Below the pieces are notes generated by a model. It made no database searches, was not told the origin of the DNA, and saw only the letters and a list, made by a program, of their open reading frames with translations. From positions 1,065,422 to 1,129,421 of the forward strand of contig CBDBJR010000002.1 in NCBI GenBank assembly GCA_965206445.1: a stretch of DNA of 64,000 nucleotides, in the 5' to 3' direction. Shown piece by piece: positions 4,465 to 42,534 of this stretch (positions are counted from its first letter, which is position 1; each line of letters begins with the position of its first letter). Position numbers and translations under genes: made by a program. This DNA comes from Candidatus Poriferihabitaceae bacterium. Lineage in GTDB: Bacteria > Pseudomonadota > Gammaproteobacteria > Arenicellales > Poriferihabitantaceae.

Positions 4465-5154
4465 ATGAATAAATACACGCACTATATCACTACCGAATAC
4501 AACGACAGTTTTGAAAAAGTAGATGGACTTCGGTGGTTGCCATGGGTCGGCAAGCACTACGACGAAACTCGAATCTTGATTATCGGGGCAAGCACCCACA
4601 AAGACGACGGACATGATTGGACACTGGATCCGCAATGGGGGGGGCCGGAAAATGCCAGCCATATACTGGTGGCGGGGGTAGAAAACAAAGATGCCCCGGC
4701 ATTTGGCTCGGAATTTTGCAAAAAACCATTTGATGCCACAGTGAAAATGTTCCTGCCCGAAATGGACATGGAACAAGCCCGCCAACAATTTTGGCCGGCG
4801 GTTGCCTTTAACAATTTTTGTCAAGAGATAGTCGAGGAGAGTGGAGACGCTTGCCCATGTCGAGAAGAGTCCATTCAGGCATTGCAAGACACGATTGAAG
4901 TTCTCAAGCCTAGATTGGTGATTGCCTGGACGACGGAAATTGGGAATTTTGGGTTTGATGGGCATGAGGATCAGGAAAAAATCAATCGTGATATACCGAG
5001 AGTGGTCGATAAGCCGACACCGATTGTTGGAATAAAGCATCCGTCTATGGCCTTTAGTGCCGCTGATTGGCTCGAGTTTTTGCAGCGCAACCCTGTGACT
5101 AGCCGACCGATTGCGGATTTGATGGCGTATCTGAAACGGCAGCCGAGCAGTTAG
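4465..5154 (+). CDS. Hypothetical protein (weak uracil-DNA-glycosylase-superfamily-like motifs), low-GC orphan
   Basis: 229-aa ORF with natural composition. The overlapping 286-aa minus-strand ORF is R/C/F/L-rich and looks spurious. Motifs: TRILIIGASTH, AFNNFCQ, GIKHPSMAF. Visibly lower GC than its neighbours. Confidence 0.55.
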   Translation: MNKYTHYITTEYNDSFEKVDGLRWLPWVGKHYDETRILIIGASTHKDDGHDWTLDPQWGGPENASHILVAGVENKDAPAFGSEFCKKPFDATVKMFLPEMDMEQARQQFWPAVAFNNFCQEIVEESGDACPCREESIQALQDTIEVLKPRLVIAWTTEIGNFGFDGHEDQEKINRDIPRVVDKPTPIVGIKHPSMAFSAADWLEFLQRNPVTSRPIADLMAYLKRQPSS

Positions 5155-9779: not shown

Positions 9780-10178
9780 ATGAAAACGTGCAAGAAATGT
9801 GGAAGCCATGATTTTGGCACTTGGACATCCGCATCACGTGGCACAGTTCATTACTACTGTCGGAGTTGTCGGCGCAAACGAGCGGCTACATATACCGCAA
9901 GAAAACTTCACAATGGTGGTACTCATACTCAGTCACAATGGTTGAAGAGGCTGAAGGAATATGATCGGTGTCCTCGATGCAAACGGGTCTGGCACGAAAT
10001 ATCACCACGCCCTGATAGGCGATATCGGTATGTTTGGACAAAGGATCATATCCTCCCATTGACTCGGGGAGGAACAGACGACATCATCAACATCCAGCCT
10101 CTCTGCTATCAATGCAATTCCTCAAAGTGTGATGGAAGGCAAAAAAAACCCGAACCATATATGTCTCGCGGTGGTTAG
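9780..10178 (+). CDS. HNH endonuclease with N-terminal zinc-ribbon-like Cys pairs
   Basis: MKTCKKCGSHDF...YYCRSCRR...CPRCKRVWH...KDHILPLTRGGTDDIINIQPLCYQCNSSK (H-N-N core). ATG at 9780 is preferred over the upstream ATG at 9711. Confidence 0.8.
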   Translation: MKTCKKCGSHDFGTWTSASRGTVHYYCRSCRRKRAATYTARKLHNGGTHTQSQWLKRLKEYDRCPRCKRVWHEISPRPDRRYRYVWTKDHILPLTRGGTDDIINIQPLCYQCNSSKCDGRQKKPEPYMSRGG

Positions 10179-22772: not shown

Positions 22773-22923
22773 ATGCCGCCTGTTTCCGGAAATTCGACTA
22801 TACATTCGTCATGATTGCCATTGGCATGATCACTGCAATCTGGGTCACCCGGAACAGGGCGGCGCCGATTACAGACCGTTTTACACTTTTTTTTTTTCAA
22901 CACACTACTATGAGGACAAAGCC

Positions 22924-23961
22924 ATGAGAAATTTCTTCACTTCAATTCGCCGAGCAGGATTTGCCTGCGCGTTGCTGGTCTCCGCCCTGGCGGTCGCCCC
23001 GCTGGCATTAGCGGAAGAGCTGCTGGTGTATACGGCAATAGAGGCCGATACGTTGGAGGAGTACAAAAACACCTTCAACCAGGCGCACCCTGATATTGAT
23101 ATCACTTTTGTGCGCGATTCCACCGGCATTATTACCGCCAGACTGCTTGCGGAAAAAGACAATCCGCACGCCGATGTTGTCTGGGGACTGGCGGCGACCA
23201 GTTTGCTGGTGCTGGGAAACGAAGGCATGCTGCATCCTTACGCCCCCCAGGGCGTGGATAAGCTGGATGCCAAGTTTGTTGACAAAAGCGATCCGCCGGT
23301 GTGGACCGGTATGGATGCGTGGGTGGCATCCATCTGTTACAACACCATCGAGGCGAAAAAGCACAATCTGCCCAAACCGACTTCGTGGAAGGATTTGCTT
23401 CAGCCCGTATATAAAGGGCATTTGATTATGCCCAATCCGGCGTCTTCCGGCACGGGGTTTCTCGATGTATCGAGCTGGCTGCAACTGTTCGGTGAAAGCG
23501 GCGGCTGGGAATATATGGACGGCTTGCACGCAAACATCGCCCGCTACACGCACTCCGGTTCCAAGCCATGCAAACTGGCGGCATCCGGTGAAATTCCGAT
23601 CGGCATCTCGTTTGCGTATCGTGCGGCGAAATCCAAAAATGCAGGGGCGCCGCTGGACATCGTCATTCCGTCCGAAGGCATTGGCTGGGACCTGGAAGCC
23701 AGCGCAATCATCAAGGGCACCGGAAAACTGGCGGCCGCAAAAAAACTGGTTGACTGGTCCATTTCCGAAGAAGCCAACCGCATGTATAACAAGTATTATG
23801 CGGTGGTCGGGTATCCCGGGGTTGCGGCAGAGGTCAAAAACTATCCGCCCAACGTCGCCGCGAAAATGATCGAAAATGATTTTGCCTGGGCCGCCAACAA
23901 CAGGAAAAAAATCCTGGCGGAATGGAGCAAACGGTATGATGGTAAGTCGGATCCCAAGTGA
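22924..23961 (+). CDS. phnS: 2-aminoethylphosphonate-type ABC transporter substrate-binding protein (iron/AfuA-like fold)
   Basis: 345 aa with Sec signal (ACALLVSALAVAPLALA). Body resembles the AfuA/PhnS family. First gene of the SBP-ATPase-fused-permease trio next to phnWX. Confidence 0.7.
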   Translation: MRNFFTSIRRAGFACALLVSALAVAPLALAEELLVYTAIEADTLEEYKNTFNQAHPDIDITFVRDSTGIITARLLAEKDNPHADVVWGLAATSLLVLGNEGMLHPYAPQGVDKLDAKFVDKSDPPVWTGMDAWVASICYNTIEAKKHNLPKPTSWKDLLQPVYKGHLIMPNPASSGTGFLDVSSWLQLFGESGGWEYMDGLHANIARYTHSGSKPCKLAASGEIPIGISFAYRAAKSKNAGAPLDIVIPSEGIGWDLEASAIIKGTGKLAAAKKLVDWSISEEANRMYNKYYAVVGYPGVAAEVKNYPPNVAAKMIENDFAWAANNRKKILAEWSKRYDGKSDPK

Positions 23962-31585: not shown

Positions 31586-31900
31586 GGTTTTCTCGCGGTT
31601 GGTCGTTATAAATTGCTATCTTGTTAATGCAGCCGAATAATCGGGTTGTATGCATATAAAAAAATCTGCACGCGCACATTGAATGTCAAAAAATCCGCTT
31701 TTTGCAAGCGATTTGCAAGGTTTTTTGCAGCAGTATTGAATAATAATTGGCAAATTTACGCTTTTTTGCCAAATACCCCAAAAACCACCCCCAACCCCAC
31801 CATCAAAAACACAAAAAAGCGGCGGAGACTTTCGCCCTCGCCGCCATTTTATAACCCGTGATGTAGATAATCTCAAACCGAAACGGGTTGCTGGTGGGAA

Positions 31901-32477: not shown

Positions 32478-33322
32478 CACAGCGGGGAGAACAGGCAGTG
32501 ACACAACCGGCACAACAGGCACCGCAAACGCGGGCATCGCGCCCCGCGTGCGCCGCCTCGCCGGCCGCCGGCAGTTATGACGTGGTGCTCGTGGGCGGGG
32601 CGATCATGGGCGCATCGACGGCGTGGTTCCTTACCGACAACCCCGATTTCGACGGCTCGGTGCTGGTGATAGAGCGCGACCCGAGTTACGAGAAGTGTTC
32701 GACGGCGCACACCAACAGCTGCATGCGACAACAGTTTTCGACCGAACTGAATGTGCGCATCTCGCAGTTCGCCGCCGACTTCGTCAACCACCTGCGGCGT
32801 TACATGGGCGGCGACCGCCGCGTGCCCGAGCTGGCGATTCGCAGTTTTGGGTATATGTACCTCGCGGATTCGCCGGACTTCGCCGCGGTGCTGCGCGCGA
32901 ATCAGCAAGTGCAGCGGGCGGCCGGCGCGGCCACGCAATTAATGACGCCGGACGAGATCAAGCGCAACTACCCGTTCTACAACGTCGACGACATTGTGCT
33001 GGGCTCGATCAACCTGGTGAACGAAGGCCTCTGGGACGGTACCGCGGTATTCGATTGGTGGCGCCGCTCGTCAAGCGAGCGCGGGGTGGAATACATCGCC
33101 AACGAAGTGGTGGCGATGACGAAAAATGCCGCCGGCACGCGGGTCGAAAGCGTCACGCTGGCCACGGGTGAGGTGATCGCGTGTGGGCAGGTGGTCAACA
33201 CCTCCGGGCCGCGCGCCGCGCGCACCGTAGGCATGGCCGGCATCACCGTGCCGGTGGAGCCGCGCAAACGTTTTTCCTGGGTGTTTTCCGCCGAGCGGCC
33301 GCTGGACCGCGACTTGCCGCTG
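32478..33322 (+). repeat. 845-bp duplication, copy 1
   Basis: Collinear with 41690-42534 (offset 9212, no indels, about 7 mismatches by eye). Confidence 0.9.
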
Positions 33323-33421: not shown

Positions 33422-35083
33422 CTATGCGGCTTGCGCCGCCTCTTTCATTGGAGGCGGAATAGCGGCGACAGCGGAAGAATCCTCCCGCAGCGATTTAATC
33501 ACGCCCCAAGTTATCAGCAGCAGAATAATGCTGACCGGAAAAGCGGCGGCAATGGATGCCGTCTGCAACGCTCCGAGTCCGCCGGCAACCAGCAGCACGG
33601 CGGCGACGAGTCCTTCGCCCAATCCCCACATGATGCGGAATTTCTGCGGCGGGTTGTCGTTGCCCATGCTGAGCATCGTGGTTATCACCAGCGTGCCGGA
33701 GTCGGACGAAGTGATGAACCATGTGGATATGAGGAATGTCGCCAATGCCGCAATCGCCCAAGTCGCCCAGCCGAAATTCATCGCTCCTATCGTTGTGTAG
33801 AGGGCGGTGGATATATCCTCGTTGACCGCGCCGATGATGTCAGTGTCGGTCTGGAACAGCGAGAGCAGGGCGGATTGTCCGGCGCCGGCCACGACGGTCG
33901 GCCCCTCGCTGAATAATTCCAAATGCAATGCGCTGCCGCCGAAAATCGCCAGCCAGAAAAAAGCGATGGAAGTCGGCACGAACATCACCCCGACCATAAA
34001 TTCCCGAATCGTCCGGCCACGTGAAATTCGGGCGATGAACATTCCGACGAAAGGCGCCCACGAAATCCACCAGCCCCAATAAAAGATTGTCCATGCGCCC
34101 TGCCACGCCGACGATTTTTCGCCGCCCGCCGTCCAGAATCCCATCGGCACGACATTCCACAGATAGTCGCCGACAGTGGTGATGAAAAACCCAAGCAGCC
34201 ATTTTGTCGGTCCGATCAGCAAAAACGCCCCGACCAAAATTATGCTGAGATAAATGTTCCATTCGCTGATGATGCGGATTCCCTTGCCGACGCCGGAAAC
34301 CGCCGACAGAGTCGCCACCGCCGAAATGACAGCAATAAGAATAACCTGCGTCATCACCGTATTGTCGATATCAAACAGATATTTCAGCCCGGCTCCCATC
34401 TGGCTCACGCCGAGCCCCAGCGAGGTGGCGACGCCGAACACCGTGCCGAAAACAGCCAGCAAATCGACGGCGTTACCGATTGGCCCGTAGATTTTGTCGC
34501 CGATAATCGGATGCAGGGCGCTGCGCAAAGTCAGCGGCAATTTTTTCCGAAAGCCGAAATACGCCAAGCACAGCCCGACCATCACATAAACCGCCCAGCC
34601 GTGGAATCCCCAATGGAAATAAGTCACGCGCATGGCGATGATGGCGGCGGATTCCGACTGCGGAGCAACGCCCGCTTGGTCTTGAAACGGATTCCCTTGA
34701 AAATGGTAAATCGGCTCGGCGATGGACCAGAACAGCAAACCGATTCCAACGCCGGCCGAAAACAGCATCGAAAACCACGAAAAATTTGAAAATTCGGGGC
34801 GCGAGTCGTCGTCGCCGAGACGAATGCTGCCGAAGCGGCTGAACATCAAGTACAGCGTGGCGAAAAACACCACCGACACGGTGGAAATGTAATACCAGTT
34901 GAGCGTCGATTCCAGCCAGCCGCGCACGGCGCCGTAAATGGAATTGGCGAACTCCACATTGAGTATCGTGAAAATCACGAACGCCGCCACAATGCCTTTG
35001 GCGGCGAGTGCCATGCCGGGATGCAGGCCGTTCCAAAATCCGGCGGTTGCCACGCCGATGCGCGGCTGAGGGGTGCTATTCAT
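33422..35083 (-). CDS. BCCT-family (betaine/carnitine/choline) transporter
   Basis: 553 aa from the ATG at 35083, which is preceded by GGAGG (MNSTPQPRIGVATAGFWNGLHPGMALAAKG...). Contains the Trp-rich BCCT-type block WTIFYWGWWISWAPFVGMFIARISRGRTIREF. Confidence 0.9.
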   Translation of the reverse strand: MNSTPQPRIGVATAGFWNGLHPGMALAAKGIVAAFVIFTILNVEFANSIYGAVRGWLESTLNWYYISTVSVVFFATLYLMFSRFGSIRLGDDDSRPEFSNFSWFSMLFSAGVGIGLLFWSIAEPIYHFQGNPFQDQAGVAPQSESAAIIAMRVTYFHWGFHGWAVYVMVGLCLAYFGFRKKLPLTLRSALHPIIGDKIYGPIGNAVDLLAVFGTVFGVATSLGLGVSQMGAGLKYLFDIDNTVMTQVILIAVISAVATLSAVSGVGKGIRIISEWNIYLSIILVGAFLLIGPTKWLLGFFITTVGDYLWNVVPMGFWTAGGEKSSAWQGAWTIFYWGWWISWAPFVGMFIARISRGRTIREFMVGVMFVPTSIAFFWLAIFGGSALHLELFSEGPTVVAGAGQSALLSLFQTDTDIIGAVNEDISTALYTTIGAMNFGWATWAIAALATFLISTWFITSSDSGTLVITTMLSMGNDNPPQKFRIMWGLGEGLVAAVLLVAGGLGALQTASIAAAFPVSIILLLITWGVIKSLREDSSAVAAIPPPMKEAAQAA

Positions 35084-35175
35084 GGTTGTGCCTCCGTTTT
35101 TTATTAGCGAAGTTGAATTATTACCATAATTCTCCCCGCTGTCAAATAACCGGACGGGGAAATTTGAGGGAGAAA

Positions 35176-35673: not shown

Positions 35674-35699
35674 TTTTCACGCCGACCCGGCCCCGCTAC

Positions 35700-35942
35700 G
35701 CCCCGCCCCGGCCCGTACCGCCCCATTGGTCGCCGCGCCCCGGTGCCGCACGCGCAAAATCCGCAGACTCAAACACCACCGCCCGCCACCGCTGTTCCCC
35801 AGCCTGGCCCTGTTCAACCGGAAAATGGCCGCGTGGCTGGTGCCTGTAACACGCCATTCTCCACCATAGCCTCGGTCTGCAACCCCCGCCACAATGCCGC
35901 TTTCAGCAACTGCCTGATTGCCAAAGTCGCCGGGCCTGCATA
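35700..35942 (+). mobile_element. 5'-truncated, internally deleted derivative of the IS (no DDE core), right terminus retained
   Basis: Reads ...PAPARTAPLVAAPRCRTRKIRRLKHHRPPPL|FPSLALFNRKMAAWLV.. and then, frameshifted, HSLGLQPPPQCRFQQLPDCQ. Compare the intact ...HAPARISPTGRLKPLLRTRKTRKPKHYRSPPL[~117 codons]LFTDLALFNRKMAAWLVEYNTVIPHHSLGLQTPIQFGFQQLPQCQ. Confidence 0.75.
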
Positions 35943-35948
35943 TTTTGC

Positions 35949-35978
35949 TTGACTTTGTCTGCAACCAAACGATAGTAT
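35949..35978 (+). promoter_or_regulatory. Candidate sigma70 promoter for the adhesin gene (TTGACT-N18-TAGTAT), starting 6 nt after the IS remnant terminus
   Basis: Hexamers read directly from the sequence. It lies 128 nt upstream of ATG 36106. The same TGCTTGAC...TAGTATG arrangement recurs at 50147-50178. Confidence 0.35.
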
Positions 35979-36105
35979 GCGAGCGCCTGAGCTTCCCACG
36001 CAATCATGCTATGCAGGGCTAACCGCCTTCCAGTCAGGCAATACACTGAGTGGAAAACAGCATGGCGGGAAGAAATTTAAATCGCAATCACACATTAATT
36101 GAGGA

Positions 36106-39100
36106 ATGAAAGACATGCAAAAAAGTAACTCAGTAACCGGGATTTCATCATTGATCAGGTTGACCGATAAAGGTCGGCATTACACACGACTCCTGCTGTG
36201 TACGGCGGCTCTCCTTGCAATATTTTGTGGGGGGGGGGGGGGGGGGGTAACTTCCGCCTGGGGGCTTGCGATAGGAGAAGGTGCCGATGATGTCGTCGCT
36301 TCTATCCCGAGCTATGCCAATGTGGCAGAGTTTTTGGCCAATGCGGATCGGTATGAGGACCGAAATGCCGAAATAAACGGGCGTCTCTATCCTATTTATC
36401 TTCTTCGCGAATTTGAAGATGCTCCCGGCAATACCCTGACCGATGCTAACCTGGTTGCAACCTATACCGATTTAGTAGCATTCAGGGACGCCGCTGGGCG
36501 CACCGGAACGGTGTTTGCCGTGGTTGGAGGCGAGCTCTATAGGTCGAACACTTTAGATGTGTTGGGAGAAGACGCCTCGCCGGAATCTCTCGGGTTTCGC
36601 ACTACTGCGGTGGGTGACAGAGCCAGGGCTACTGGCTATGATGCCACAGCCGTGGGACAGGGTGCGAGAGCCTCCGGCGATTCATCCACTGCCCTGGGTC
36701 AAAGTTCTGGGGCACAGGGTGGTAATTCTATAGCGATCGGTGACCATGCCCGATCCTATGGTGGCAGGTCCATTGCTCTCGGGGCTTTTGCTCATAGTGG
36801 TGGCGACAGATCTACCGCAGTAGGGCGGATCTCCGTCACTTACGGAGAGCGTAGCAGCGCGTTTGGTAATTACGCCCACGCGCTGGGACGGCACTCCACT
36901 GCGCTGGGCCAGAGCGCCTACGCGGCCAATCTGGCACCCGGTGAAGACTTTGAGGATGTCATCGCTGCCGACAATAATCTGGGATATCCCCCCGAATTAA
37001 TTGAATGTGCTCTCGACCAGAGAGCCTACGTACCGGATTGCCTGAAATACTACACCGATCAGGAAAAGGCCAATTCGCTGTTAACCGCCGAGAACGCCGA
37101 AGGTGAAGCGTTCCGTGCCGGCATTCAGACGCGGTTGCAAGGCGTTTTGGATGGCCTTACTGTAGAGCGCGCCACCGCCGTAGGTGACAGCGCCAGAGCG
37201 ACAAACGATGATGCTACCGCCGTGGGACAGAGTGCAGAAGCCTCCGGCGATGAATCCACTGCTCTGGGTCAAAATTCCGGGGCACAGGGTAGTAAGTCTA
37301 TAGCGCTCGGTTACAATGCCCGTGCCTATGGCCTTAGGTCCGCTGCCCTTGGGGATTTTGCCCATAGTGGCAGCGATAGATCTACCGCAATAGGGGGTGT
37401 CTCCAGTGCTTATGGCCAGCGTAGCAGCGCGTTTGGCCACTACGCCAACGCGCTGGGACTGCGCACCACTGCGTTGGGCAATGGTGCCTATGCGGCCAAC
37501 CTGGCACCCGGTCAAGAATTTGAAGATGCCATCGTTGCCGACAGCCCGGGATTCCCGCCCGAATTAATTGAATGTGCTGCGGATAACAAGCCCTATATAC
37601 CGGATTGCCTGAAATTTTACACCGCTGAGGAACAGGCCGATCCGCTGTTAGAGGTCGATTCCCCCGCAGGCGATGCGTTCCGTGCCGGCATTCAGACGCG
37701 GTTGCGGGAAGACATTTTGGATGCCCTTACTGTAGAGCGCGCCACCGCCGTAGGCGACAGCGCCAGAGCCATAAATGATGATACTACCGCCGTGGGGCAG
37801 GGGGCGGAAGCCTCCGGCGATCAATCCACCGCTTTGGGACAGGAGGCGAGAGCCGCCGGCGATGATGCCACCGCCCTGGGGCAGAGGGCGAGAGCCACCG
37901 GTGAAGATGCCACCGCCGTGGGGCAAGGCGCGAGAGCTACCGACCGGCAATCCACCGCCCTGGGTCAGCTTTCCGGCGCGCAGGGTGAGAATTCTGTAGC
38001 GCTCGGCGACCATACCCGTGCCTATGGTGACAGGTCTACTGCTCTCGGACAATTTGCCCATAGTGGTGGCGAAAGATCTACCGCAGTAGGGCAGATTTCC
38101 AGCACTTACGGGGATCGTAGCAGCGCGTTTGGTCGCTACGCCAACGCACTGGGACTGCGCTCCACTGCGTTGGGTCACGGTGCCTACGCGGCCAATCTGG
38201 CACCCGGTGAAGACTTTGAAGATGTCATCGCTGCCGACGATAATATGGGAACTCCCGACGAATTAATTGAATGTGCTCTCGACGCTGAAGTCTATATACC
38301 GGATTGCCTGAAATTTTACACCGCTGAGGAACAGGCCGATCCGCTGTTAGAGGTCGATTCCCCCGCAGGCGATGCGTTCCGTGCCGGCATTCAGACGCGG
38401 TTGCGGGAAGACATTTTGGATGCCCTTACTGTAGAGCGCGCCACCGCCGTAGGCGCCGATGCCCGTGCCATAAACTCTTTTACCACCGCTATAGGCGTCA
38501 GCGCGGAAGCATCCGGCGAAGGATCCACCGCTGTGGGTGCAGGCGCAGAAGCCGCCGGCAGACTATCCACCGCCCTGGGCGCAGGTGCAGTCGCCCGTCG
38601 AGACAATCAGATTGTGCTGGGCGTCAGGTCAGTCGAGGATGACCCCGCCACTACCGGTGTGGACGAAACGCGCGCTGCCAGCACGTATACTCTGCCGGGC
38701 TTGCCCGATGATTCGGCGTCCGGTCCCCAGTTGGTAACCACCGATGCCGATGGCAACCTTGCCACCGACGGTGGCAGCGTGCGGCGCGAGATTGCAGCCG
38801 GTGATGCCGCCCTGCGCAACGATTTGGGTACGGCTGCGGATGTGGCGGCTGCGGACGGCAGCGTCTATGCGCGCATAGGCGCTGAGATTGCCGCCCGTGA
38901 AACTGCCGTGAGTGGCATTGAAAGCGCGTTATCCAGCCTGAGCAGCGGTGGCGTCGGGGAACTGGGAGCGGAAAGGGCCGCTCGAATGTTGGGTGATGCC
39001 GCCCTGCGCACCGATTTGGGCACGGCTATGGATCCGGAGTCTGCGACCGGCAGCGCCTATGCGCGCATCAGAGCTGTGCAAAGTGGTTTGGGCGCGGTTG

Positions 39101-40407
39101 GCGATCCGGCGTCTACGGGCGGCAGCGCCCATGCGCGCATCAACGCTGTGCAAAGTGTTTTGGGCACGGTTGACGAGCTGATGGATGCGGAAGGCAGCGC
39201 CCATGCGCGCATCAGCGCTGTGCAAAGTGGTTTGGGCACGGCTACGGATGCGGAGTCTGCGACCGGCAGCGCCTATGCGCGCATCAGCGCTGTGCAAAGT
39301 GGTTTGGGCACGGCTGACGATACGGCGGCTGTGGACGGCAGTGCCTATGCGCGCATCAGCGCTGTGCAAAGTGGTTTGGGCACGGCTACGGATGCGGAGT
39401 CTGCGACCGGCAGCGCCTATGCGCGCATCAGCGCTGTGCAAAGTGGTTTGGGCACGGATGGGGATGGGGCGGATATGGACGGCAGCGTCTATGCGCGCAT
39501 CAGCGCTGTGCAAAATGTTTTGCGTACTGGCGATGCGATTAGCGCGGCGAATGCCGCCCGAGTTGTTGAAGAAGAGGTCGGGTCTGCGGTTGAAACCGTC
39601 GACGAGGTGAGCGATTTGATCGAAGGCGAAACGGTGACACTGGACGAGGAACGGACAGCAACGAGCCAGGCCGTGGTCCTGAGAGGCGGTAGCGTTAACC
39701 AGAAAGTGGCGTATCTGGCCACCCGAATTGGTACAGCAGTTGATCTGGACGCCCCAATCGTGATTTTGGATGATGACGGAGTTGAGATTCCACTGAATAC
39801 GAAGGAAGAACAGTTCATACAACTCGGCGTGGACCGGGGCGTGGTCCAGCAAAACCAGTTAATGTTCCGTCACCTGTTCGGCACCCCGACCGGTTCTGCC
39901 GAGGGCGCCAATAGCGTTGACCCGGACCCCGGCAGTATCGCAGGGAGAGTCGGTCAAATGGAAGAGGGTGTCGGTGAAATGAAAGCGGGTGGCGGTTTTG
40001 ATCTTGAGCGGGCTACTGATATGCCCGCCGCAGGCGTGACGCGCCGTGTGGTGGTAGAAGAGACCGAGGGGCCCCCGGGGGGCCGCACCACACGGTTGAG
40101 AACGCTGGATTTGGGCGCTCTGGGCGGCTTGGATCAGCGTGTAGACGGCTTAAACCGGCGGGTGGAAAGCTTATCCACGCAGCTGGACGAGGGCATCGCC
40201 ATGTCTGCGGCGCTGTCCGCTTTGCCTAACGCTGTTCCCGGCAAAGGCCGCTATACCCTCGGTCTGGGGCTGGGCAATCACGGGGGCTCGTCGGCGGTCG
40301 CAATGGGCTTCGCCGGTCGTTTAAAGAAGTCCACCCACATCAATATCGGTATTTCGACAGCGGGCGACACGATTACCAGCCGTGCCGGGGTGAGTTGGTC
40401 CTGGTAG
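36106..40407 (+). CDS. Trimeric autotransporter adhesin (YadA/Hia family), 1433 aa
   Basis: N-terminal signal-like segment. Many YadA-head (Hep_Hag-like) repeats (ATAVGxxAxAxGxxSTALGQ...). Repetitive stalk. C-terminal YadA-type anchor (GIAMSAALSALPNAVPGKGRYTLGLGLGNHGGSSAVAMGFAGRL...GVSWSW*). Confidence 0.9.
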   Translation: MKDMQKSNSVTGISSLIRLTDKGRHYTRLLLCTAALLAIFCGGGGGGVTSAWGLAIGEGADDVVASIPSYANVAEFLANADRYEDRNAEINGRLYPIYLLREFEDAPGNTLTDANLVATYTDLVAFRDAAGRTGTVFAVVGGELYRSNTLDVLGEDASPESLGFRTTAVGDRARATGYDATAVGQGARASGDSSTALGQSSGAQGGNSIAIGDHARSYGGRSIALGAFAHSGGDRSTAVGRISVTYGERSSAFGNYAHALGRHSTALGQSAYAANLAPGEDFEDVIAADNNLGYPPELIECALDQRAYVPDCLKYYTDQEKANSLLTAENAEGEAFRAGIQTRLQGVLDGLTVERATAVGDSARATNDDATAVGQSAEASGDESTALGQNSGAQGSKSIALGYNARAYGLRSAALGDFAHSGSDRSTAIGGVSSAYGQRSSAFGHYANALGLRTTALGNGAYAANLAPGQEFEDAIVADSPGFPPELIECAADNKPYIPDCLKFYTAEEQADPLLEVDSPAGDAFRAGIQTRLREDILDALTVERATAVGDSARAINDDTTAVGQGAEASGDQSTALGQEARAAGDDATALGQRARATGEDATAVGQGARATDRQSTALGQLSGAQGENSVALGDHTRAYGDRSTALGQFAHSGGERSTAVGQISSTYGDRSSAFGRYANALGLRSTALGHGAYAANLAPGEDFEDVIAADDNMGTPDELIECALDAEVYIPDCLKFYTAEEQADPLLEVDSPAGDAFRAGIQTRLREDILDALTVERATAVGADARAINSFTTAIGVSAEASGEGSTAVGAGAEAAGRLSTALGAGAVARRDNQIVLGVRSVEDDPATTGVDETRAASTYTLPGLPDDSASGPQLVTTDADGNLATDGGSVRREIAAGDAALRNDLGTAADVAAADGSVYARIGAEIAARETAVSGIESALSSLSSGGVGELGAERAARMLGDAALRTDLGTAMDPESATGSAYARIRAVQSGLGAVGDPASTGGSAHARINAVQSVLGTVDELMDAEGSAHARISAVQSGLGTATDAESATGSAYARISAVQSGLGTADDTAAVDGSAYARISAVQSGLGTATDAESATGSAYARISAVQSGLGTDGDGADMDGSVYARISAVQNVLRTGDAISAANAARVVEEEVGSAVETVDEVSDLIEGETVTLDEERTATSQAVVLRGGSVNQKVAYLATRIGTAVDLDAPIVILDDDGVEIPLNTKEEQFIQLGVDRGVVQQNQLMFRHLFGTPTGSAEGANSVDPDPGSIAGRVGQMEEGVGEMKAGGGFDLERATDMPAAGVTRRVVVEETEGPPGGRTTRLRTLDLGALGGLDQRVDGLNRRVESLSTQLDEGIAMSAALSALPNAVPGKGRYTLGLGLGNHGGSSAVAMGFAGRLKKSTHINIGISTAGDTITSRAGVSWSW
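36229..36247 (+). repeat. Homopolymeric G19 tract within the adhesin coding sequence (codons 42-47, GGGGGG)
   Basis: Counted directly: ...ttttgt + 19 g + taacttcc. Confidence 0.95.
36600..38470 (+). repeat. Three long tandem passenger-domain modules (570, 570 and 699 bp periods)
   Basis: TGTAGAGCGCGCCACCGCCGTAGG recurs at 37161, 37731 and 38430. The blocks 37593-37756 and 38292-38455 (164 bp) look identical. Confidence 0.85.
39049..39552 (+). repeat. 7 x 72-bp (24-aa) in-frame tandem repeats in the adhesin stalk
   Basis: GGCAGCGCCTATGCGCGCATCAGCGCTGTGCAAAGTGGTTTGGGCACGG... starts at 39049, 39121, 39193, 39265, 39337, 39409 and 39481. Peptide unit: GSAYARISAVQSGLGTxxDxxxxx. Confidence 0.9.
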
Positions 40408-40428
40408 CCTGTCAATACAACCTGAGAA

Positions 40429-40460
40429 CCCCTGCGGCTGAGCGGTCGCAGGGGTTTTTT
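40429..40460 (+). terminator. Rho-independent terminator of the adhesin gene
   Basis: CCCCTGCG-gctgagcggt-CGCAGGGG followed by TTTTTT, 22 nt after the stop. Confidence 0.8.
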
Positions 40461-40605
40461 AATTGCCATTGCCGTACTCGGCTGGTTTTGACAACCCCCC
40501 CTACGCCGAGACCCTGGAAGGACTAGAGGCCATCCGCCCATACGACGCACCTTGTAGTATAAGCAGTCACTCCGCCGTGGGGCTTTCGCAGAGTGGGTGT
40601 GGGCT

Positions 40606-41689
40606 TGTATAAGCTCAGAAACCTTTGGCACTCTGCCCCAAGAGGAGAGCCATGCAAATTCACCATGCCGGATACCGCATCCGGGGGTTTTACCGAGTAG
40701 CTCATTCAGGGCATGTTTGGGGGATGACTTCCAAACATGCCCAACACCGCCTTGCGATCGGGGAATTTTCCGACCGGCACGGCAAAATCGCTGCCAGCGA
40801 GGCCTTTAAGGTCAGCATTCGTACGCTCTATCGCTGGCGTCAGACCCTCAAACACAACGCCGGCAACGCCGCCGCGCTCACGCCTGAATCCTGTGTACCG
40901 CACCGGCGCAGGCGACCAGTCACGCCACCGCTCCTGAGCGAGCAAATCCGGCAATTGCGCCGACAATACCCCAACCTCGGCAAGGCCAAACTCCATGTAT
41001 TATTACGCGACTGGTGCGCGCAGCGGCGACTGGCGCTGCCGAGCGTCTCCACCATCGGGCGCATCATTGCCAAAGACCCGCATAAAATGCGCCACGCTCC
41101 CGCGCGTATCTCACCCACCGGGCGCCTCAAACCGCTGCTGCGTACCCGTAAAACACGCAAACCCAAACACTACCGGTCGCCGCCACTGGCCCTGTTTGCC
41201 TGCGATACCGTGATGCGCCTGCGCGACGGCATCCGCCGCTACCTGTTCACCTTCATCGACCCCAACAGCCGCTTTGCCATTGCCTTTGCGGCCAATTCTG
41301 CTACCAGCCGCAACACCTCCATCGCCCTGGAGGCGCTCACCGACCTGCTGCCCGTGCAACCGCAATTCCTGCTCTCCGATAACGGTTCTGAGTTCATGGG
41401 TGATTTCCAGCAACGCCTTAATCAGCTCGGTATTGTCCACTGGTGGACTTACCCCAGGTCACCCAAAATGAATGCCCATTGTGAGCGCTTCAACCGCACC
41501 ATACAGGAGCAGTTCGTGGATTATCACGCCGACTTGCTGTTCACTGACCTGGCCTTGTTTAACCGCAAAATGGCCGCCTGGCTGGTCGAATATAACACCG
41601 TCATTCCCCACCATAGCCTCGGTCTGCAAACTCCGATACAATTCGGCTTCCAACAACTGCCACAGTGCCAAAGGTATTGGACCCATACA
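40606..41689 (+). mobile_element. Intact IS element, IS481-like family (1084 bp), imperfect ~26-bp terminal inverted repeats
   Basis: IRL is TGTATAAGCTCAGAAACCTTTGGCACT. The reverse complement of IRR is TGTATGGGTCCAATACCTTTGGCACT (shared TGTAT end and an 11-bp core CCTTTGGCACT). Single DDE/rve transposase ORF. No flanking target duplication seen. Confidence 0.75.
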
Positions 41690-41713
41690 CACAGCGGGGA
41701 GAACAGGCAGTGA
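40724..41713 (+). CDS. DDE (integrase-core, rve) transposase, IS481-like
   Basis: MTSKHAQHRLAIGEFSDRHGKIAASEAFKVSIRTLYRWRQ (HTH), then ...ACDTV...LLSDNGSEF...AHCERFNRTIQEQF...YNTVIPHHSLGLQTP. The ORF runs through the IRR and stops at a TGA in flanking DNA. ATG 40724 is preferred; the upstream ATG 40625 is possible. Confidence 0.85.
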   Translation: MTSKHAQHRLAIGEFSDRHGKIAASEAFKVSIRTLYRWRQTLKHNAGNAAALTPESCVPHRRRRPVTPPLLSEQIRQLRRQYPNLGKAKLHVLLRDWCAQRRLALPSVSTIGRIIAKDPHKMRHAPARISPTGRLKPLLRTRKTRKPKHYRSPPLALFACDTVMRLRDGIRRYLFTFIDPNSRFAIAFAANSATSRNTSIALEALTDLLPVQPQFLLSDNGSEFMGDFQQRLNQLGIVHWWTYPRSPKMNAHCERFNRTIQEQFVDYHADLLFTDLALFNRKMAAWLVEYNTVIPHHSLGLQTPIQFGFQQLPQCQRYWTHTHSGENRQ

Positions 41714-42534
41714 CACAACCGGCACAACAGGCACCGCAAACGCGGGCATCGCGCCCCGCGTGCGCCGCCTCGCCGGCCGCCGGCAGTTATGACGTGGTGC
41801 TCGTGGGCGGGGCGATTATGGGCGCATCAACGGCGTGGTTCCTTACCGACAACCCCGATTTCGACGGCTCGGTGCTGGTGATAGAGCGCGACCCGAGTTA
41901 CGAGAAGTGCTCGACGGCGCACACCAACAGCTGCATGCGACAACAGTTTTCGACCGAACTGAATGTGCGCATCTCGCAGTTCGCCGCCGACTTCGTCAAC
42001 CACCTGCGGCGTTACATGGGCGGCGACCGCCGCGTGCCCAAGCTGGCGATTCGCAGTTTTGGGTATATGTACCTCGCGGATTCGCCGGACTTCGCCGCGG
42101 TGCTGCGCGCGAATCAGCAAGTGCAGCGGGCGGCCGGCGCGGCCACGCAATTAATGACGCCGGACGAGATCAAGCGCAACTACCCGTTCTACAACGTCGA
42201 CGACATTGTGCTGGGCTCGATCAATCTGGTGAACGAAGGCCTCTGGGACGGTACTGCGGTATTCGATTGGTGGCGCCGCTCGTCAAGCGAGCGCGGGGTG
42301 GAATACATCGCCAACGAAGTGGTGGCGATGACGAAAAATGCCGCCGGCACGCGGGTCGAAAGCGTCACGCTGGCCACGGGTGAGGTGATCGCGTGTGGGC
42401 AGGTGGTCAACACCTCCGGGCCGCGCGCCGCGCGCACCGCAGGCATGGCCGGCATCACCGTGCCGGTGGAGCCGCGCAAACGTTTTTCCTGGGTGTTTTC
42501 CGCCGAGCGGCCGCTGGACCGCGACTTGCCGCTG
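41690..42534 (+). repeat. 845-bp duplication, copy 2
   Basis: See 32478-33322. It starts at the first nucleotide after the IS right terminus. Confidence 0.9.

Follow-up and report, generated by a model that had tools for sequence, protein, structure and literature searches.

The window analysed in this study, a stretch of 64 kb (64,000 nucleotides) from a Candidatus Poriferihabitaceae bacterium in which all positions below are numbered, encodes a trimeric autotransporter adhesin (TAA) with an uninterrupted run of nineteen G near the 5' end of its gene (L001, L025, and L082-L093 denote the loci compared with it). This proposed slippage tract, read directly from the sequence at 36229-36247 on the forward strand, where the promoter candidate, the other parts of the gene, and the insertion sequence described below also lie, appears to be a simple-sequence contingency locus gating the translation of the adhesin, a reading to which we assign a probability of about 75%. 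The G19 tract makes up six GGG codons (codons 42-47) and the first base of codon 48, and with 19 G the open reading frame (ORF) 36106-40407 remains open for a product of 1433 amino acids; codons 42-47 and the open frame had been given in the original prediction, and both were confirmed. The slipped-strand ON/OFF switch put forward there is supported by the allele lengths, by intact OFF alleles, by the rarity of insertions and deletions in the flanks, and by the tracts of homologues. All the defining features of a simple-sequence-repeat (SSR) contingency locus that can be tested on sequence are present.

In the proposed mechanism, replication slippage on the homopolymer would add or remove G. 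The leader would supply the start, a charged n-region, and a hydrophobic core, to be followed by the tract and then by VTSAWG|LAIGEGADD, the passenger, and the YadA anchor. With a tract length of 1 mod 3 (16, 19, 22, 25) the leader would be fused to the adhesin (ON), and lengths of 0 mod 3 or 2 mod 3 would be OFF, giving a peptide of about 50-60 amino acids. The poly-Gly stretch would be removed along with the signal peptide, so that in-frame length changes would leave the mature adhesin unaltered and the tract would be free to drift. That slippage causes the length changes, how fast and how reversibly it acts, and what it does at the protein level are what we infer here.

The frame logic was simulated by replacing the tract with 14-29 G and translating each version. 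Full-length protein was obtained with n = 1 mod 3, the sole in-frame class. At n = 0 mod 3 the leader frame ends at a TAA directly after the tract (36248-36250), and at n = 2 mod 3 it ends, by simulation and in the sequence, at a TGA 13 codons past the tract (36288-36290). It had been claimed that any change of one nucleotide breaks the frame and that no nearby in-frame ATG would rescue it, and both claims hold: the first downstream in-frame alternative starts are GTG 36322 and TTG 36334, neither of which has a Shine-Dalgarno sequence, and products from downstream starts would be without an export signal. The OFF states bring GTG or TTG codons at the tract edge into frame, where gene callers take them as starts (P0001, the L082 protein, and P0002); as functional starts these codons were rejected, the product having neither the n-region nor the h-region of the signal peptide. 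Callers start P0001, P0002, P0003, P0008, P0009, P0030, and the 1669-residue protein of L082 at or after the tract, and the database adhesin proteins are thus without a signal peptide, e.g. MGGGGGGGGVTSAWG..., which is a systematic annotation artefact.

The tract is pure and far longer than chance would allow, as is characteristic of contingency loci. The chance expectation for G19 in 64 kb is about 5e-6 at 29% G, and a control of 1.43 Mb of unrelated loci from marine metagenome-assembled genomes (MAGs) holds just five G/C runs of at least 8. G19 is the sole homopolymer longer than 11 in the window, where the next-longest runs are T11 (22887-22897), G8 (4637-4644), and A8 (10141-10148), and other G runs do not exceed 6; the window thus holds no other homopolymer of comparable length, as had been stated. 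Among the Gly codons of this genome, GGG accounts for 15-21% and GGC dominates, and six consecutive GGG codons have a probability of about 1e-4 if picked for the protein alone. Since GGG is a minority codon and six in a row are improbable, the tract looks as if it were selected at the DNA level. Searching the whole window against Rfam gave no match, and therefore no known RNA element lies near the tract.

Two other homopolymers deserve mention in their own right. The T11 run precedes the ATG of the ORF 22924-23961 by 27 nt and may belong to its promoter or 5' untranslated region (UTR). A C19 run at L025:53-71 was set aside, as it stands at a contig end, is followed by GC-rich low-complexity sequence, and has no tie to any adhesin. 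L025 is a short-read MAG contig of a sponge-associated Rhodospirillaceae, and its C19 is probably an artefact of the assembly end.

The position of the tract within the export signal is precise. The N-terminus reads in the order MKDMQKSNSVTGISSLIRLTDKGRHYTR-LLLCTAALLAIFC-GGGGGG-VTSAWG-LAIGEGADD. Its leader (36106-36228), delineated by translation and family alignment, contains the start codon(s), a charged n-region with K22, R24, H25, and R28, and the hydrophobic core LLLCTAALLAIFC; by alignment, the core of 13 residues, the charged n-region, and the A-W-G motif together form an N-terminal Sec signal peptide. A full-protein search recovered the adhesin family at 33-71% identity, in which signal peptides end in ...AWA and mature proteins open with YKAGEGADD..IPEYANVAAYLAD. 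The putative c-region (V)TSAWG (36248-36264) was aligned to the motif of the family, AWA|YKAGEGADD, from which a cleavage site G53|L54 and the mature N-terminus LAIGEGADDVVASIPSYANVAEFLANADR are predicted.

In an alignment of ten N-termini, the CGGGGG of the window fills six columns that are gapped in nine of nine homologues, between the hydrophobic core and the c-region. Because this insertion precedes the c-region, the tract is placed by the alignment inside the cleavable signal peptide, at the boundary of its h- and c-regions, and therefore the encoded poly-Gly should leave with the signal peptide. The tract had been placed just behind the signal peptide; it does lie past the hydrophobic core, but within the signal peptide and not behind it. 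A lipoprotein reading of AIFC|G (Cys41) was rejected, since the lipobox follows the rule [LVI][ASTVI][GAS]C and A-I-F-C, with Phe at -1, does not fit it.

Tract length was compared among related strains of a single metagenome. The protein of the adjacent ureidoglycolate lyase gene is encoded in identical copies on three contigs of the ENA metagenome assembly ERZ25069326, and two further contigs from that sample were reached through searches with the adhesin N-terminus and with the full-length protein. Four related adhesin-bearing contigs share the leader of the window, without a difference over the final 210 nt ahead of the tract and with two single-nucleotide variants further upstream in the 5' UTR (L001/L084). 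Against G19 in the window, which is in frame with the leader, the tract is G20 in L084 (ctg72832, 5x), G21 in L086 (ctg68935, 3x), and G26 in both L082 (ctg78841, 134x, 3.96 Mb) and L001 (ctg71113, 2x). The comparison of tract length with related genomes that had been advised thus gave the series 19/20/21/26/26 behind a common leader, and the five alleles occupy all three reading frames. The tract is polymorphic between conserved flanks, three of the contigs being of low coverage.

The out-of-frame alleles L082 and L086 keep uninterrupted ORFs to the anchor, of 1669 and 1289 amino acids, respectively, which argues against gene decay; apart from the tract, these OFF alleles are intact over 5.0 and 3.9 kb. 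Flank identity among the alleles is 97-98.5%, which marks them as distinct strains. Between the window and L082, 4.9 kb of flank contain one gap event, and one of 29 homopolymers of at least 5 nt differs in length. Since flank indels and homopolymer differences are so rare, noise is an unlikely source of the 7 nt that separate the window from the 134x contig; it could account for the differences of 19/20/21 among the low-coverage contigs. The only other homopolymer length difference in the 4.9-kb flank is that of the intergenic A7 at 31658-31664, which is A4 in L082 and A6 in L084.

Seven further family members from other samples (L087-L093) were compared at the DNA level; the six that carry a tract share 33-45% identity with the window adhesin. 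L087 carries C31 (L087:2035-2065), in frame and read as poly-Pro in the signal-peptide n-region, on a circular contig of 3.94 Mb, and L088 carries an in-frame C31 near its 5' end (L088:1954-1984). Shorter tracts are found in L092 (C12, L092:1953-1964, 56x), L093 (C10, L093:1875-1884), L089 (C8, L089:1901-1908), and L090 (C9, L090:1900-1908), and in all four a signal-peptide body can be recognised, out of frame with a leader that has a good Shine-Dalgarno sequence. L089 and L090, two contigs of one sample, have no mismatch over 9238 bp, and their sole internal difference is C8 versus C9. Homopolymers in the signal-peptide coding part are, by these comparisons, recurrent in the adhesin family. 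The difference in their positions and code strands (poly-Gly here, poly-Pro elsewhere) points to separate origins and to selection for the tract itself. The adhesin homologue of L091 has no homopolymer tract. Five tandem 13-nt units (TCTTCACTGGGCC) stand beside a scaffold gap at L091:1069-1137, about 240 nt upstream of that homologue.

Several points weigh against a switch. Of the five alleles, only that of the window is joined in frame to its leader. The alleles were compared between strains and not within one clone, and no switching was observed inside any one lineage. Coverage is 2-5x in three of the related contigs and homopolymers of 19-26 nt are error-prone, which makes the frame of any single allele uncertain. 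The cleavage site of the signal peptide is taken solely from the alignment. Finally, at such lengths slippage of RNA polymerase or of the ribosome could blur ON against OFF. Carried further, this last point gives an unlikely alternative in which the tract is a leaky attenuator: RNA polymerase and ribosome would slip on 19-31 G/C, and every genotype would yield mixed-frame products, with tRNA re-pairing that is fully cognate because each frame of the run reads GGG. What the tract controls would then be the expression level and the cell-to-cell noise, and its length in DNA would matter little. The lengths of 19-31 are indeed far above the 6-12 typical of characterised switches, and the dominant 134x strain is nominally OFF, yet its 5-kb ORF is intact. 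Ribosomal frameshifting contributed to P.II expression in Escherichia coli (Belland 1989, as cited in PMC3960869), and transcriptional slippage is established on long A/T runs (PMC1088944; PMC5084427). However, transcriptional slippage is reported to occur less readily on G/C than on A/T runs (PMC5084427), and the short-tract homologues (C8/C9, C10, C12) also vary in frame, which fits switching at the DNA level. Nor was there the fixed out-of-frame arrangement of programmed transcriptional slippage or recoding, as 19 G is in frame and 20, 21, and 26 are out. Slippage may still contribute.

If instead all strains had the same in-frame tract and the lengths of 19/20/21/26 were consensus errors of long reads, the adhesin would be expressed constitutively. 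The low coverage of L001 (2x), L084 (5x), and L086 (3x), the frameshifted neighbouring genes of L001, and the known unreliability of annotated G-tract lengths (PMC9187656) speak for this; but with 7 nt between the window and the 134x contig against one gap event in the 4.9-kb flank, with C8 versus C9 in the range of lengths that are read accurately and as the sole difference in 9.2 kb, and with a pure tract kept across strains that differ by 1.5-3%, we consider a length artefact improbable. It is still less probable that the adhesin is being lost and that mutations of the ordinary inactivating kind account for the frameshifts in the tract. Of the five alleles, four are out of frame, L083 is without the adhesin gene, and an insertion sequence (IS) adjoins the gene, as such a loss would have it, but L082 and L086 are free of other disruption over their 5.0 and 3.9 kb, the leader is fully conserved, and the same design recurs in distant homologues. 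Hardly credible, lastly, is a protein-level feature in which a flexible poly-glycine linker was selected in the signal peptide and the homopolymer is its by-product: poly-Gly and poly-Pro may be tolerated there, since they are removed with the signal peptide, but six of six Gly codons are GGG although GGC dominates, the insertion is missing from most homologues, and related alleles are out of frame. Overall, a contingency locus gating the translation of the adhesin remains the preferred reading of the G19 tract.

A candidate sigma-70-like promoter lies at 35949-35978 (TTGACT, a spacer of 16-18 nt, GATAGT/TAGTAT); the consensus scan gave three sites against 0.5 expected, and the sequence of the candidate is unchanged in L001 and L086. 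The Shine-Dalgarno sequence GAGGA (36101-36105) lies 9 nt before ATG 36115 and abuts ATG 36106, which is in the same frame. ATG 36106 had been taken as the start; the frame is open from it, but by the generally known spacing rule GAGGA suits ATG 36115 better, and ATG 36115 is therefore more likely to be the start.

The mature adhesin (36265-40407) comprises YadA_head repeats, an array of 24-residue repeats at 39015-39522, which bears out the internally repetitive structure noted earlier, and a YadA anchor at approximately 40240-40404. In Pfam, YadA_head (PF05658) was matched in 12 stretches with an E-value of 8.1e-70 and YadA_anchor (PF03895) at residues 1379-1433 with an E-value of 4.4e-08 (33.5 bits versus a cut-off of 22.7). 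The YadA_head repeats together with the C-terminal anchor identify the product as a TAA, i.e. a substrate of type Vc secretion. After the stop codon, a terminator-like hairpin of the intrinsic type, CCCCTGCG..CGCAGGGG followed by T6, was read from the sequence at 40429-40460.

The adhesin gene is also variable beyond the tract. Between alleles, the adhesin head (36248-37300) has a non-synonymous divergence (dN) of 0.08-0.14 and a synonymous divergence (dS) of 0.10-0.19, against 0.004 and 0.007 in the BCCT transporter gene (33422-35083). The head thus diverges about 20-fold more than BCCT, at synonymous and non-synonymous sites, with a dN/dS of 0.55-1.13, and divergence climbs sharply right at the tract. 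The divergence of the head points to allele replacement by recombination, and not only to drift by point mutation. The length differences among the alleles (1433, 1669, and 1289 amino acids) lie largely in the repeat arrays.

In L083, a related strain, homology to the window stops at 35684 (L083:5990), and the lyase gene directly adjoins allantoicase. In L086 (1052-1068) the left boundary is again 35683, joined to the end of HpcH (window 43734). The stretch 35683-41689, made up of the adhesin gene with its promoter region and the IS downstream, appears to behave as a movable module. An inverted repeat was sought at the left boundary of this module and not found; it is therefore not a simple transposon.

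The adhesin gene had been described as bracketed by IS copies, which proved incorrect. Self-BLAST of the window found a single IS (40605-41689), which encodes an rve-family transposase (Pfam rve/rve_3/HTH_32) and has imperfect terminal inverted repeats; the other candidate IS ORFs in the window proved to be genes for an aminotransferase and for solute-binding proteins. In L082 (L082:6528-7612) and L084 (L084:3111-4195) the IS occurs once more, as a copy 96-97% identical, between the lyase and BCCT genes; its junction corresponds to 35145-35150, where the window has no IS. The window further contains a direct duplication of 845 bp of a DAO (FAD oxidoreductase) gene fragment, at 32478-33322 and 41690-42534. 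Because the second DAO copy begins exactly at the right end of the IS and the segment BCCT-lyase-adhesin-IS lies between the two copies, the duplication suggests an IS-mediated rearrangement.

A search with the adhesin N-terminus found no relative among the GTDB species representatives, the JGI metagenomes gave no match to the 5' flank pattern or to the family N-terminal profile, and a search of a plasmid collection gave no match. Exact look-ups found neither the window adhesin nor the window BCCT protein on record, and a literature search by sample accession yielded no relevant paper. The closest matches of the BCCT transporter, at no more than 71% identity, come from marine MAGs, several of which are named for sponge-associated lineages.

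Switching by repeat tracts has been described for several surface proteins. Hag/MID of Moraxella catarrhalis is a TAA with a poly-G tract of G6-G10 in its ORF, the length of which differs between strains (PMC7302503). It resembles the window adhesin as a TAA in which the length of a coding-region poly-G sets translation ON or OFF; in contrast, its tract is 6-10 nt long against 19-26 here, only generic YadA head and anchor domains are common to both, the window allows its tract to be located exactly, with the h-region of the signal peptide on one side and the c-region on the other, and the host is uncultured and known here from sequence. Neisseria Opa proteins have CTCTT repeats in the region coding for the leader peptide (PMC3960869). 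As in the window, the repeat lies in the signal-peptide coding part, frame shifts uncouple the export signal from the body, and in-frame changes spare the mature protein; however, the repeat is a pentanucleotide and not a homopolymer, and Opa is a beta-barrel outer-membrane protein and not a TAA.

In the Bifidobacterium breve pilins Bbr_0113 and Bbr_1889, a Sec signal and the body lie in two frames joined by G10-12, and tract heterogeneity was measured by maximum-depth sequencing (PMC9187656). Here too a G-tract joins a Sec signal to the body at certain lengths, in a non-pathogenic, host-associated bacterium, but the organism is Gram-positive, the protein is a sortase-dependent pilin and not a TAA, the tracts are shorter, and experimental support exists. 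TabA/TahA of Haemophilus influenzae biogroup aegyptius and UspA1/UspA2H of M. catarrhalis are TAA families in which most members carry SSRs in the coding sequence or promoter and some alleles are out of frame (PMC3309571, PMC7302503). UspA2H carries its poly-A tract within the ORF, and the G tract of UspA1 precedes the ORF and acts on transcription (PMC7302503). They share with the window adhesin the simple-sequence repeats of TAA families, but their repeats consist mainly of di- or tetranucleotide units or of tracts in the promoter. The window locus would work like these known systems and differs from them by its tract length (19-31 nt), by the exact placement in the signal peptide, and by the organism. 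The switch mechanism itself is textbook; what deserves attention is the family-wide recurrence with very long tracts, together with contigs that differ at the tract alone.

One possible extension, which we regard as doubtful, concerns the family as a whole. Ultra-long G/C homopolymers (19-31 nt) may have arisen by repeated, independent insertion into the signal-peptide coding part of a single TAA family (with poly-Gly at the h/c boundary here and poly-Pro in the n-region elsewhere) in uncultured hosts with marine MAGs as nearest relatives, and maybe not as a heritable switch but as a randomiser that acts per transcript or per cell through slippage of DNA, RNA polymerase, and ribosome. If this were true, phase variation would operate here in a way that the pathogen models have not described.

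Our understanding of contingency loci comes almost wholly from cultured, host-adapted bacteria, mostly pathogens, and the present locus belongs to an uncultured bacterium. Inventories of adhesins from metagenomes will misannotate tract-bearing genes, because callers begin at or past the tract and the predicted signal peptide is lost. The recurrence of such tracts, up to 31 nt in length, suggests that stochastic control of surface adhesins extends beyond the classical pathogens.

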